A stretch of DNA of 64,000 nucleotides from a virus (Duplodnaviria; Heunggongvirae; Uroviricota; Caudoviricetes), in the IMG/VR virus record IMGVR_UViG_2724679058_000003; one strand, given 5' to 3'. Of the stretch, positions 36,852-41,186 are shown piece after piece. Position numbers and translations under genes: made by a program. Under the pieces are notes generated by a model, which was not told where the DNA came from, did no database searches, and saw nothing but the letters and a program-made list of their open reading frames with translations. Every line of letters begins with the position of its first letter. Within the stretch, counting starts at the first letter, position 1.

Positions 36852-37883
36852 ATGTCCAATTTACTGACCGTACACCAAAATTTGCCTGCATTGCCGGTCG
36901 ATGCAACGAGTGATGAGGTTCGCAAGAACCTGATGGATATGTTCAGGGATCGCCAGGCGTTTTCTGAGCATACCTGGAAAATGCTTCTGTCCGTTTGTCG
37001 GTCATGGGCGGCATGGTGCAAGTTGAATAACCGGAAATGGTTTCCCGCAGAACCTGAAGATGTCCGCGATTATCTTCTATATCTTCAGGCGCGCGGTCTG
37101 GCAGTAAAAACTATCCAGCAACATTTGGGCCAGCTAAACATGCTTCATCGTCGGTCCGGGCTGCCACGACCAAGTGACAGCAATGCTGTTTCACTGGTCA
37201 TGCGGAGGATCCGAAAAGAAAACGTTGATGCCGGTGAACGTGCAAAACAGGCACTAGCGTTCGAACGCACTGATTTCGACCAGGTTCGTTCACTCATGGA
37301 AAATAGCGATCGCTGCCAGGATATACGTAATCTGGCATTTCTGGGGATTGCTTATAACACCCTGTTACGTATAGCCGAAATTGCCAGGATCAGGGTTAAA
37401 GATATCTCACGTACTGACGGTGGGAGAATGTTAATCCATATTGGCAGAACGAAAACGCTGGTTAGCACCGCAGGTGTAGAGAAGGCACTTAGCCTGGGGG
37501 TAACTAAACTGGTCGAGCGATGGATTTCTGTCTCTGGTGTGGCTGATGATCCGAATAACTACTTGTTTTGCCGGGTCAGAAAAAATGGTGTTGCCTCGCC
37601 ATCATCCACCAGCCAGCTATCAACTCGCGCCCTGGAAGGGATTTTTGAAGCAACTCACCGATTGATTTACGGGGCTAAGGATGACTCTGGTCAGAGGTAC
37701 CTGGCCTGGTCTGGACACAGTGCCCGTGTCGGAGCCGCGCGAGATATGGCCCGCGCCGGAGTTTCAATACCGGAGATCATGCAAGCTGGTGGCTGGACCA
37801 ACGTAAATATTGTCATGAACTATATCCGTAATCTGGATAGTGAAACGGGGGCAATGGTGCGCCTGCTGGAAGATGGTGATTAG
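36852..37883 (+). CDS. cre: Cre site-specific tyrosine recombinase
   Basis: 343 aa MSNLLTVHQNLPALPVDATSDEVRKNLMDMFRDRQAFSEH...; Cre sequence with very few substitutions. Confidence 0.97.
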   Translation: MSNLLTVHQNLPALPVDATSDEVRKNLMDMFRDRQAFSEHTWKMLLSVCRSWAAWCKLNNRKWFPAEPEDVRDYLLYLQARGLAVKTIQQHLGQLNMLHRRSGLPRPSDSNAVSLVMRRIRKENVDAGERAKQALAFERTDFDQVRSLMENSDRCQDIRNLAFLGIAYNTLLRIAEIARIRVKDISRTDGGRMLIHIGRTKTLVSTAGVEKALSLGVTKLVERWISVSGVADDPNNYLFCRVRKNGVASPSSTSQLSTRALEGIFEATHRLIYGAKDDSGQRYLAWSGHSARVGAARDMARAGVSIPEIMQAGGWTNVNIVMNYIRNLDSETGAMVRLLEDGD

Positions 37884-38376: not shown

Positions 38377-38406
38377 ATTGCTCTAATTGATTGCTATAAT
38401 TGAGCC
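38377..38406 (+). promoter_or_regulatory. Tandem overlapping C1 operators with embedded TATAAT
   Basis: ATTGCTCTAATTGATTGCTATAATTGAGCC upstream of ref-like gene. Confidence 0.6.
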
Positions 38407-38492: not shown

Positions 38493-39053
38493 ATGAAAAC
38501 AATCGAACAAAAAATTGAACAGTGCCGCAAGTGGCAGAAGGCAGCCAGAGAACGAGCGATCGCTCGGCAACGGGAGAAGTTGGCTGATCCGGTCTGGCGA
38601 GAATCTCAATATCAGAAAATGCGGGATACTATCGACCGCCGTATCGCTAAACAGAAAGAACGCCCACCAGCCAGCAAAACGCGGAAAAGCGCGGTAAAAA
38701 TAAAATCTCGTGGCTTGAAGGGGAGAACACCAACGGCGGAGGAACGGCGCATCGCCAATGCTCTTGGCGCTCTCCCCTGCATTGCCTGCTATATGCATGG
38801 AGTAATATCTAATGAGGTGTCTCTGCACCATATCGCCGGTCGTACCGCGCCGGGTTGTCATAAAAAGCAATTGCCACTTTGTAGATGGCACCACCAGCAT
38901 GCAGCACCGGCTGAAGTAAGAGCAAAATACCCCTGGCTGGTCCCTGTTCATGCCGATGGTGTGGTTGGAGGCAAGAAAGAATTCACCCTGCTGAACAAGT
39001 CAGAGATGGAGTTACTGGCTGACGCCTATGAGATGGCAAACATCATGCACTAA
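38493..39053 (+). CDS. ref: HNH-fold recombination enhancement function Ref-like protein
   Basis: ORF 186 aa; CIACYMHG ... SLHHIAGR ... CRWHH; size and position match P1 Ref. Confidence 0.75.
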   Translation: MKTIEQKIEQCRKWQKAARERAIARQREKLADPVWRESQYQKMRDTIDRRIAKQKERPPASKTRKSAVKIKSRGLKGRTPTAEERRIANALGALPCIACYMHGVISNEVSLHHIAGRTAPGCHKKQLPLCRWHHQHAAPAEVRAKYPWLVPVHADGVVGGKKEFTLLNKSEMELLADAYEMANIMH

Positions 39054-39094: not shown

Positions 39095-39883
39095 GTGACT
39101 TCAGTCAGAATCATCACACGCCCGGTACGGATGGATCCCTTTTCAAATATTCCATGGACGGCACAGTCTGAGTACCGGGCGCTACCTTCAGTTGTATTGC
39201 TAAGCCGCCGCTGGTGGCTTTTCTTTTTTGTAGGGGGCGCTATGGATAAGAAAATATGCGTTGTTTCGATGAGCGTCGGCAAACCGGCGTCAATGACTGC
39301 TGCATGGATCAATAACGAGCTGATAATGGCTGAGCGGACCAGCTACCCTGAACGCCGCCGCGACATGGAACTCCAGCTGCTGCGCGAATTGCGAGAAAAA
39401 GAGGAAAAGGGTTTTATCGTGCTGGTGGAAGAGGAAAACAGCTTTATTACTGGTCGAGTTGGCCAGCGTGTAAGGTTGCGCGATCCCTTCATGAACGGCA
39501 GGCCGGTACTAATTGAGGCAATGCAGATTTATAAGGAGCTAGAACGCCAGAAAGCAATCAAGTTACCGCGCAAGGAATCCGGCAAATACATCCTCCACCA
39601 AAGCATCTTCGATTCCGAACACGATAAAAAAGGCGATGAATTTTTCAACATCAACTGGAGCGAAATAACGACAGAGCATGTTCTGACGTTACTATGTTGC
39701 TTTGCGACGGAATACAACAACGTTGCCAGCGCCGACTACATCAGGGCAATGGTTGGAGAAATTGATGCCCGCCAAGAACCGTCGTTACTAAGCTCCCTTG
39801 TGAATATAATTCAAGCTACTCATGAAATGACCGCACGGAAAGTGCCTCAAGGTTCATTAACCGGCAGAGATAATTATCTTTAA
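39095..39883 (+). CDS. Hypothetical protein (P1 mat position)
   Basis: ORF 262 aa. Confidence 0.5.
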   Translation: MTSVRIITRPVRMDPFSNIPWTAQSEYRALPSVVLLSRRWWLFFFVGGAMDKKICVVSMSVGKPASMTAAWINNELIMAERTSYPERRRDMELQLLRELREKEEKGFIVLVEEENSFITGRVGQRVRLRDPFMNGRPVLIEAMQIYKELERQKAIKLPRKESGKYILHQSIFDSEHDKKGDEFFNINWSEITTEHVLTLLCCFATEYNNVASADYIRAMVGEIDARQEPSLLSSLVNIIQATHEMTARKVPQGSLTGRDNYL

Positions 39884-39890
39884 ACTTCTT

Positions 39891-39909
39891 GGGCGCTAAC
39901 TATGCGCCC
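39891..39909. terminator. Hairpin between convergent genes
   Basis: GGGCGC-TAACTAT-GCGCCC. Confidence 0.4.
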
Positions 39910-39925
39910 ACGCCCATTACATTAA

Positions 39926-40876
39926 TTAATCAATAAATACACGGAATGGCTCAAGCATCCCTTCAGGATCTTTATCCTCGTCACCAAGTGATATTAGTCT
40001 TCTGGCGAGTAGTTTTACGTCATCATCATCTTTAATGAAGCCAACCTGATCATTATTAAAATAGATATCGATTATTTTTAGGATTTGCTCTTGTGTAAAA
40101 TGATTGAATTTTAATAACTTTGCTACAACTCGATGTGTTGTGGCAAAACTGCCTGAGCGGCGTAATTCATCTATAGTGAAATTAACTTCCATTTCCGCTA
40201 AGTTACTGGCTTGAGGAAAGTGCTCACCTATAAACTCTGATAAGCGGGCATAGATATGTGGTTCTGAATCTTTCTTCTTTTTCCACTCGTACTTCAAATA
40301 CTCATTCATATCATCCTTTATAAAGGCACTTTTATAATCACCATCTTCAGTTATAATGTATATATCCTCTCCGTTTGGTATCGCCTTTAGCAAACACTCC
40401 CAATTGACTGCATCACCATATGATTTATTTTTACCCGGAGGGTTGCCAAGATCGAATCGGCGTTTCCCTTTTTCTATTGTTTCATCATCAGCCTCTATCT
40501 TAGACGCTGCATCAAAAATCCTTTTAATTACAACATCGGCAGCTAAAGACTCTTCTTTAAATAAGTTCTGTATATCGGTAATAATTTCATTCTTTAGCCG
40601 ACTAGCTTCTATAACCTTATCATTAAATAGTGAATGTTTTTCATGCTGCCTGAAAATCTGTGGTAGCGCGGGCTTGTAGTCTTTTGCAATTTCCTTTATG
40701 GTTTCAGAGAGAACTTTAGAACGATTTCTCCAGAACTCATTCACTAAAAGTTCTGGCAACCAAAGTTTTAAACGACCATATTGATGTAAGGCAAATACTT
40801 TATCTAGCTCATCTAGTTTATCCTTACCCATTCGATAAAATTCCAAATATAGATTTGTATCAATAAAAACATTCAT
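39926..40876 (-). CDS. PIN-like nuclease-fold protein, AT-rich cargo gene in res/mod slot
   Basis: ORF 316 aa; MNVFIDTNLYLEFY and IYIITEDGDY acidic motifs; own TATAAT and AGGA upstream; markedly lower GC than flanks. Confidence 0.6.
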   Translation of the reverse strand: MNVFIDTNLYLEFYRMGKDKLDELDKVFALHQYGRLKLWLPELLVNEFWRNRSKVLSETIKEIAKDYKPALPQIFRQHEKHSLFNDKVIEASRLKNEIITDIQNLFKEESLAADVVIKRIFDAASKIEADDETIEKGKRRFDLGNPPGKNKSYGDAVNWECLLKAIPNGEDIYIITEDGDYKSAFIKDDMNEYLKYEWKKKKDSEPHIYARLSEFIGEHFPQASNLAEMEVNFTIDELRRSGSFATTHRVVAKLLKFNHFTQEQILKIIDIYFNNDQVGFIKDDDDVKLLARRLISLGDEDKDPEGMLEPFRVFID

Positions 40877-40937
40877 ATCACATCCTAATTATAAGTAATT
40901 TAGGCCACTCTAAAAAATAAAGTGGCCTAATAAGAAA

Positions 40938-41186
40938 TCAATCAGCATTCAGAAGCAATGCGTTATCTATGATGATCTGCTCCCATTCTTCGAATGCCCG
41001 ATCGCGGACACCTTGGGGAACACTGTTAGTTTTGAAATCGACGACCGTCCGCCATTTCCCGTCCGGGCGGTACATGCGCAGAGCTTTACTTCCCCCTTCC
41101 CTGCGCACCTCAACGTTATGCTTGTCAGCAAACTCTTGTAATGCTCGTAGCGTCCCATGCTTTACTGTGTAGTATCGCTTTTTCAA
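40938..41186 (-). CDS. lxc: Small protein (P1 Lxc position)
   Basis: ORF 82 aa, last gene of darB-type operon. Confidence 0.45.
   Translation of the reverse strand: MKKRYYTVKHGTLRALQEFADKHNVEVRREGGSKALRMYRPDGKWRTVVDFKTNSVPQGVRDRAFEEWEQIIIDNALLLNAD

Follow-up and report, generated by a model that had tools for sequence, protein, structure and literature searches.

A PIN_12/DUF4935 protein as single-gene cargo of the P1 mat-lxc hotspot: a candidate single-chain defence nuclease

The DNA analyzed here is a stretch of 64,000 nucleotides (the window) from virus record IMGVR_UViG_2724679058_000003, which is a P1-like phage-plasmid, and the subject of this report is the one gene that it carries between mat and lxc. 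In the window cre (36852-37883), ref (38493-39053) and mat are followed on the minus strand by lxc, ulx and darB (feature coordinates are collected in Table 1). An open reading frame (ORF) for a 316-aa protein, which opens with MNVFIDTNLYLEFY and holds IYIITEDGDY inside, was the only gene in the mat-lxc interval and left intergenic gaps of 61 nt and 42 nt; the RefSeq label of its product is 'PIN domain-containing protein'. Positions 39884-40937 of the window were 100% identical to plasmid 1 of Salmonella Typhi ty3-243 (LT905089.1). A first-pass annotation, made from the letters and their ORFs alone, had placed a single opposite-strand gene where P1 carries its restriction-modification (R-M) genes, and comparison with the P1 reference (NC_005856) bore this out: homology to P1 was lost at ~39812 and regained at 40940, and the interval from mat to lxc is filled by res and mod in P1 and by the PIN gene in the window. 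IS1, which had been assigned to the same P1 interval, does not belong there. The P1 reference has IS5 inserted within mod, and IS1 marks a separate P1 hotspot, RD-2 (PMC6906374). The interval was also correctly described as richer in AT than its flanks, with a GC content of 0.33-0.38 over 39800-41000 and of 0.44-0.55 on either side; the cassette averaged 0.36 and its flanks ~0.48. A 107-aa ORF antisense to the PIN gene had the composition expected for the reverse complement of an AT-rich gene and was considered spurious.

Table 1. Features of the mat-lxc interval and its flanks, in window coordinates (AF2, AlphaFold2; CDS, coding sequence; dG, folding free energy).
Feature	Position	Strand	Detail
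CDS including stop, 316-aa PIN_12/DUF4935 protein	39926..40876	-	ORF list; Pfam PIN_12 E 7.6e-18
N-terminal PIN nuclease domain, residues 1-210	40247..40876	-	Pfam, alignment, AF2, Foldseek
Long helical insert after PIN strand 2, residues ~62-123	40508..40693	-	fastest-evolving part; model helices
C-terminal all-helical domain, residues 211-316	39929..40246	-	small alpha-helical-repeat fold; motif N275-x-Q-x3-I-x2-D-x-D
Exchangeable AT-rich cassette	39793..40937		GC 0.36; takes in last ~30 codons of mat
mat (maturation control) ORF	39095..39883	+	left flank of hotspot
lxc (modulator of C1)	40938..41186	-	right flank of hotspot; last gene of darB-ulx-lxc operon
GC-rich hairpin between convergent mat and PIN genes	39890..39910		dG -14.2 kcal/mol, z -3.9 (+ strand)
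Hairpin directly after lxc stop	40900..40930	-	13-bp stem; dG -23.7 kcal/mol, z -5.8 vs shuffled
AGGA Shine-Dalgarno (SD) sequence	40886-40883	-	6 nt before ATG
TATAAT abutting SD	40893-40888	-	ends 1 nt before SD
107-aa ORF antisense to PIN gene	40356..40679	+	S-, L- and F-rich

The mat-lxc slot corresponds to the hotspot described as RD-1 by Venturini et al. (PMC6906374). Cassette junctions in the window were set against the empty site of RCS47, in which 39 bp separate mat from lxc, and against eight other cargo types; the right end was fixed at the lxc stop codon and the left end was variable inside mat. All slot cargos were AT-rich (GC 0.33-0.39) and had this right junction in common, with left junctions variable in the last mat codons. 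Every cassette was seen to bring its own last ~10-45 mat codons, the length depending on the cassette. In P1 the slot holds the EcoP1I type III R-M system (res/mod), and in other P1-like elements it holds SIR2, YaaC with a second gene, EAL, DUF2971, GNAT, or RelA/SpoT, the last alone or together with DUF4145. In phage SJ46 the RelA/SpoT cargo is CapRel-SJ46 (2472-3593 of locus L010), which lies exactly in this slot and is a validated fused toxin-antitoxin defense whose C-terminal domain inhibits the N-terminal toxin and senses a phage capsid protein (Zhang et al. 2022, PMC9712102); PADLOC v2 lists it as candidate PDC-S33 (E 7e-87). The SIR2 cargo matched the ThsA, Dsr, LmuA and PDC-S25 models and the DUF2971 cargo matched PDC-S31. 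PADLOC candidates with neighboring numbers (S31, S33 and S34) all touch cargos of the slot. In a survey of clinical P1-like elements, type III R-M, CapRel, dGTPase and PrrC were found (bioRxiv 10.1101/2025.09.12.675607). With EcoP1I in P1, CapRel-SJ46 in SJ46, and SIR2 and PDC-S31-type genes in other P1-like elements, the mat-lxc slot is a real defense hotspot, as had been supposed at the outset, although not exclusively so. The PIN gene and EcoP1I res/mod have the same position, strand and role as exchangeable AT-rich RD-1 cargo; EcoP1I is, however, an unrelated two-gene system of ~5 kb with self-discrimination by methylation, and the PIN gene has no modification partner.

The 316-aa protein was searched against profile collections. 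Residues 3-181 matched Pfam PIN_12 (formerly DUF4935, PF16289) over profile positions 1-172 of 172 with 65.9 bits (E 7.6e-18; the gathering cutoff is 32 bits), and the protein is thus a full member of this family. PIN_8 gave a weaker match, NCBIfam gave nothing, and PHROGs returned a family without assigned function only; none of these searches placed the protein in a characterized non-defense family. A database search returned 157 homologs of the same full-length architecture (314-345 aa, >90% query coverage), with identities of 63-95% in Enterobacteria, ~43% in Vibrio and ~36% in Bacteroidota. In an alignment of 117 sequences the acidic residues D6, E47, D114, D155, D178 and D180 were invariant, D6 and N8 belonging to the motif DTN and D178 and D180 to EDGD; both motifs had been picked out beforehand as PIN-type acidic motifs. 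Also invariant were N8, R50-N51-R52, R140, G154, W159, W198, N275 and P146-P147-G148-K149, the last within a nearly invariant GNPPGK (144-149). The protein is predicted, from profile, alignment and model, to be a PIN-like nuclease whose acidic site is intact.

AlphaFold2, run with the 117-homolog alignment, gave a confident model (pLDDT 91.3, pTM 0.76) with an alpha/beta PIN domain (residues 1 to ~210), a helical insert within it (~62-123) and an all-helical C-terminal domain (~211-316). Sequence searches detected no solved relative of the protein. In Foldseek searches of the PDB, VapC-type PIN structures ranked first (1w8i, 1y82, 5h4g, 3zvk and 5ecw) with probabilities of 0.95-0.99, weak E-values (0.06-0.3) and identities of 8-16%. 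Mean pairwise identity across the family was 0.52 for the PIN core, 0.41 for the C-terminal domain and 0.35 for the insert. DUF4935 has been placed in the VapC-like group of the PIN-like superfamily and described as having four to five conserved acidic residues, a long helical insert after strand 2, an unassignable C-terminal region, mono-cistronic genes and no known function (Matelska et al. 2017, PMC5499597). The window protein has the two-part architecture of the family (~320-350 aa, N-terminal PIN domain and C-terminal region, single cistron) and shares with it the acidic residues, the insert after strand 2, two helices after strand 3 and the mono-cistronic organization; no difference was found, and in both the C-terminal region lacks a solved relative. 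Since PIN_12 has no assigned function, membership names the protein and does not explain it.

The C-terminal domain kept its N-x-Q-x3-I-x2-D-x-D motif despite evolving faster than the PIN core. Its ~70-residue core (residues 226-297) aligned with positions 298-369 of 384 of the PADLOC profile PDC-S34 (PDLC05001), an untested single-gene candidate, and this partial match held for 117 of 117 family members (best E 3e-17) and for a 389-aa Paraburkholderia relative. Positions 1 to ~297 of PDC-S34 matched none of the PIN_12 proteins tested, so that the PDC-S34 proteins would carry a different or very divergent N-terminal module. The PIN_12 protein of Ralstonia phage RSA1 has a different C-terminus, from which it follows that the PIN_12 domain is combined with alternative C-terminal modules. 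A profile of the C-terminal domain retrieved ~1,300 clusters at 50% identity. Among the best 150 matches of a profile search of 1.8 billion representatives no other fusion of the domain was found, only the same architecture or fragments. Stand-alone ORFs for the domain are present in metagenomes, and those considered as split toxin/antitoxin versions were set aside as frameshifted fusions or fragments on short contigs. One of them, examined at the DNA level (metagenome contig L022, 3347-4564), is a PIN_12 gene that an out-of-frame stretch splits into two ORFs; it aligned end-to-end with the fused protein, ended in DDEDVIPF and had a TIR_2 gene beside it (2120-2941). Domain charge was looked at as a hint of nucleic-acid mimicry and was uninformative, the whole protein being mildly acidic.

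Genomic contexts of homologs were compared in eight cases, and no partner or neighbor gene was conserved among them. A 63%-identical enterobacterial homolog lies in a CP4-like island with type I R-M, HNH, Mrr, KlcA and CbtA/CbeA genes, one variant of which has IS66 in place of the upstream neighbor of the homolog. The Serratia homolog adjoins Hachiman (HamA/HamB), the Pantoea homolog lies at a prophage edge next to a serine recombinase, and a metagenome-assembled homolog overlaps the end of an MmeI-like R-M gene with a Fic gene alongside. In Salegentibacter the gene follows an EndoU toxin gene, in Vibrio it follows a gene for a 1,915-aa Upf1-like helicase-nuclease, and on a Paraburkholderia plasmid it lies among Abi, integrase, Vsr-Dcm-Eco29kI, SIR2 plus ATPase and HEPN plus ATPase genes. 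The PIN_12 gene of RSA1 is an opposite-strand insert within a tail-gene cluster. In IMG/VR, relatives were encoded by 30 viral contigs, 23 of them non-P1; on the latter, 15 of 23 relatives lay no more than 2.5 kb from a contig end against 6.4 expected (P ~3.5e-5), a statistic in which some loci are related and the provirus ends are themselves predictions.

Two PIN alleles with 91% nucleotide identity were found in P1-like plasmids. Between them the synonymous divergence (dS) was 0.43 and the nonsynonymous divergence (dN) 0.031 (dN/dS 0.072), with an omega of 0.055 for the PIN domain and 0.11 for the C-terminal domain; judged by these substitution patterns, the gene is functional and under strong purifying selection. 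Allele-to-allele identity was 85-93% over the cassette and 97-100% over the flanks, and this confinement of the divergence to the cassette indicates old, selected alleles recombined into near-identical backbones. The PIN gene was present in 22 of the 711 PLSDB plasmids matching the flanks (~3%) and in 30 of 5,426 complete E. coli genomes (0.55%), always on plasmids of 90-108 kb and never on the chromosome; one isolated, viable phage, JL22, carries it. These counts support the earlier expectation that the gene belongs to the accessory cargo and not to a backbone common to P1 relatives. In one carrier of the 91% allele (NZ_CP013030.1), darB is annotated as frameshifted and partial (L017, 3268-3950), so that part of the anti-restriction function would be lost there.

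Distribution and selection bear on the possibility that the gene is a passenger, neutral or of niche use, whose role lies outside conflict, such as RNA processing or turnover of the Fcf1/Nob1 type, which entered a recombination hotspot by chance. One homolog is named 'rRNA-processing protein FCF1' in one source, the EAL and GNAT cargos of the slot look regulatory or metabolic, and PIN_12 is officially a family of unknown function, all of which would suit such a passenger. The gene is nevertheless sporadic, AT-rich and always on mobile elements, purifying selection has been strong across a dS of 0.43, and defense genes recur as neighbors across phyla, with relatives enriched at prophage ends. 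A passenger role is therefore judged very unlikely.

Both hairpins of the interval, which the first-pass annotation had read as bracketing the cargo, are real and more stable than shuffled sequence; as brackets they did not hold up, since they appear to be ordinary terminators and not cassette ends. The hairpin at 39890-39910 is probably a bidirectional terminator. The hairpin at 40900-40930 lies within the 5' leader of the PIN gene or ahead of it, and its single change in the sister allele keeps the pairing as G-U. At the empty site one hairpin stands between the convergent mat and lxc genes, and in each alternative cassette (L010-L017) the lxc stop is immediately followed by a GC-rich hairpin peculiar to that cassette. 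Because every cassette supplies such a hairpin, that at 40900-40930 is, from its sequence and placement, most likely the terminator of the lxc-ulx-darB operon, and because each cargo also has its own mat end, the cassettes include both the mat 3' end and the terminator of the neighboring operon. Hairpins as mobile-element ends or recombination sites were considered and rejected, since the lxc terminator differs from cassette to cassette and there is no resemblance between the two hairpins.

The expression signals proposed earlier, a TATAAT and an AGGA, are both present. The SD sequence is kept in the 91% allele (as GAGGA), where the TATAAT is replaced by CTTAAT. Since the TATAAT ends 1 nt before the SD sequence, a transcript started there would lack the latter; the TATAAT was rejected as a dedicated promoter because it was not called by a promoter scan, abuts the SD sequence and is not conserved. 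The P2mod promoter of P1, which overlaps the end of lxc, is not conserved in the window. Leaky read-through from lxc and a weak promoter are the candidates for transcription of the PIN gene. Matches to the C1-operator consensus ATTGCTCTAATAAATTT with no more than 3 mismatches numbered 13 in the window (3333-52219) against 0.23 expected by chance. No match fell between 38394 and 48352, a span that takes in mat, the cassette, lxc, ulx and darB, and the operator nearest to the PIN gene was at 38377. Control by the C1 repressor was accordingly set aside, there being no operator within ~1.5 kb, and the lack of an operator near the gene fits expression in the lysogen.

The gene follows immediately on the darB-ulx-lxc operon, which serves anti-restriction and regulation, and has the same orientation. 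This arrangement could mean that the nuclease serves the infection cycle of the phage-plasmid itself, in host takeover or counter-defense (e.g., by degrading host RNA or host defense RNA), delivered or expressed with ulx and darB. Such a role would be in keeping with the viability of JL22 and with a transcription that may depend on read-through from darB-ulx-lxc, the gene's own promoter being doubtful. It is countered by the strong terminator hairpin between lxc and the PIN gene, by homologs in non-phage chromosomal islands beside Hachiman, R-M, SIR2 and HEPN systems, by the characterized cargos of the slot, which are defenses and not anti-defenses, and by the presence of the gene in only 3% of P1-like elements. 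We consider it unlikely.

VapC toxins and the window protein have in common the PIN fold with its acidic metal-binding residues, and RNA cleavage is established for PIN toxins of the VapC group. The protein is, however, twice the length of VapC and has an additional domain as well as a helical insert; no vapB gene adjoins the PIN gene, and no small partner is conserved elsewhere. Neither Rfam RNA families nor tandem or direct repeat arrays were found at the locus, and an RNA antitoxin or known non-coding RNA there was rejected on that ground. An addiction function was among those first suggested for the gene. In its classical form it is unlikely, since the gaps leave no space for an antitoxin gene and such a gene is conserved in none of the contexts compared. 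A broader version, in which a VapC-type addiction or competition toxin has an unrecognized antidote (an RNA, a host factor or a distant gene) and stabilizes the P1 plasmid by post-segregational killing, like res/mod in P1, draws on the VapC-like fold, on the plasmid-only occurrence in E. coli and on the replacement of R-M, a kind of system with addictive properties (PMC6906374). Against this version stand the lack of an adjacent antitoxin ORF, repeat array or Rfam RNA, the absence of a conserved neighbor in the contexts compared, the two-domain size of 316 aa in place of the 130-150 aa of VapC proteins, and the relatives in chromosomes and prophages, where plasmid stabilization is irrelevant. 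It is regarded as distinctly unlikely.

A closer parallel is provided by CapRel-SJ46, which occupies the same mat-lxc slot as a single gene of comparable size in an AT-rich cassette (373 aa, compared with 316 aa for the PIN protein), on the other strand. Each protein combines an N-terminal toxin-type enzyme with a C-terminal non-catalytic domain in one chain and has no separate antitoxin. The two are not homologous: CapRel-SJ46 joins a tRNA pyrophosphokinase (toxSAS) to a pseudo-zinc-finger C-terminal domain, whereas the PIN protein joins a PIN nuclease to a helical repeat, and Pfam and PADLOC searches gave no RelA/SpoT or PDC-S33 match for the latter. An active VapC-like toxin that is carried alone must either be held in check in cis or act specifically on a foreign substrate. 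Given the fold with its intact catalytic residues, the single-gene organization free of an antitoxin gene, the purifying selection, the hotspot location and the defense-island neighborhoods, all of them observed, the gene would encode a single-chain effector that is harmless until infection. By analogy, CapRel logic with a different enzyme is the most economical model.

The favored reading, to which we give about an even chance, is that the PIN gene is P1 RD-1 accessory cargo encoding a single-polypeptide, self-restrained PIN ribonuclease that acts in defense or abortive infection, like CapRel. The N-terminal VapC-like PIN domain (D6, E47, D114/D155, D178, D180) would be the metal-dependent effector and, by analogy with VapC toxins, would cleave RNA, most probably tRNA, rRNA or mRNA. 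The fused helical-repeat C-terminal domain, or the insert, would restrain or target the PIN domain. A trigger from an infecting phage would free the PIN domain, and the lysogen would then shut down before the competitor phage matured, so that infection would be aborted. Autoinhibition and phage triggering are proven for CapRel; for the PIN protein we infer the RNA substrate, self-restraint by the C-terminal domain, the phage trigger and the anti-phage phenotype. The defense interpretation is well motivated but unproven, and the first-pass annotation, which had suggested an uncharacterized single-gene anti-phage, abortive-infection or addiction function, is confirmed in its observation and partly supported in its interpretation.

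Several results weigh against a single-chain defense nuclease. No functional report giving a phenotype for DUF4935, PIN_12, PF16289 or PDC-S34 proteins was found in the literature searched. No known defense model in PADLOC, NCBIfam or PHROGs covers the whole protein, the PADLOC match spanning 72 residues only. The YaaC, EAL and GNAT cargos had no defense-model match in PADLOC, and the slot is for that reason not exclusively one for defense. CapRel has natural unfused relatives, whereas no natural unfused pair of PIN and C-terminal domains was found. The motif of the C-terminal domain is strongly conserved, and the domain may therefore contribute to substrate binding instead of being a variable sensor. 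Finally, the promoter of the gene is doubtful.

C-terminal ends were compared in the same alignment. In 39 of 117 homologs the protein ends in an acidic stretch followed by [I/L]PF (DDDIPF, DEDIPF, EDLPF); these are mostly longer sequences, 33-38% identical to the window protein, and lie within P0031-P0118 of the alignment. The window protein (C-terminus at 39929-39958) and the enterobacterial and Vibrio clade have no such tail, and a few homologs end in a proline run (PPPPPPF, PPPPPPL). In form the acidic [I/L]PF tail matches the conserved tip at the C-terminus of SSB in bacteria (PMC5872125). No precedent for an SSB-like tail on a defense protein was found in the literature searched. The tail suggests, speculatively and from its sequence form, that part of the family is linked to the SSB interaction network. 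A joint reading may be drawn from these elements, in which PIN_12/DUF4935 would be a large, phylum-spanning and unrecognized class of single-chain abortive-infection nucleases, the helical-repeat C-terminal domain (also in PDC-S34) would serve as in-cis restraint and infection sensor, the SSB-like tail in about a third of the family would be a bait or decoy by which activation is tied to phage proteins engaging the host SSB network, and the P1 copy would be a tail-less variant. Taken as a whole it is an unlikely proposition.

Two further cargos of the slot were noted. The EAL cassette (NZ_CP091927.1, L014) has ~1 kb without a listed gene that holds a 170-aa opposite-strand ORF (2452-2964, +), and the EAL-domain cargo may be a two-gene unit. 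The YaaC cargo (NZ_CP023381.1, L013, 1573-3122) has an abutting 169-aa gene, the annotated start of which (2613) is the last base of the YaaC gene; no PADLOC model matched either gene, and the pair is a further uncharacterized two-gene candidate in the hotspot.

The annotation of the protein as PIN domain-containing or DUF4935 and the description of the hotspot were already known; what is new is the argued case for the family as a PIN-based single-chain defense in the slot that yielded CapRel. If this reading is true, a widespread domain without known function would gain one, the CapRel paradigm of toxin-plus-sensor immunity in a single protein would acquire a counterpart built on a PIN nuclease, and the mat-lxc slot of P1-like phage-plasmids would be a compact, easily mined source of single-gene defenses. 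P1-like phage-plasmids are common in clinical E. coli and Salmonella, S. Typhi included, and what the slot carries may influence which phages, therapeutic ones included, are able to infect such strains.

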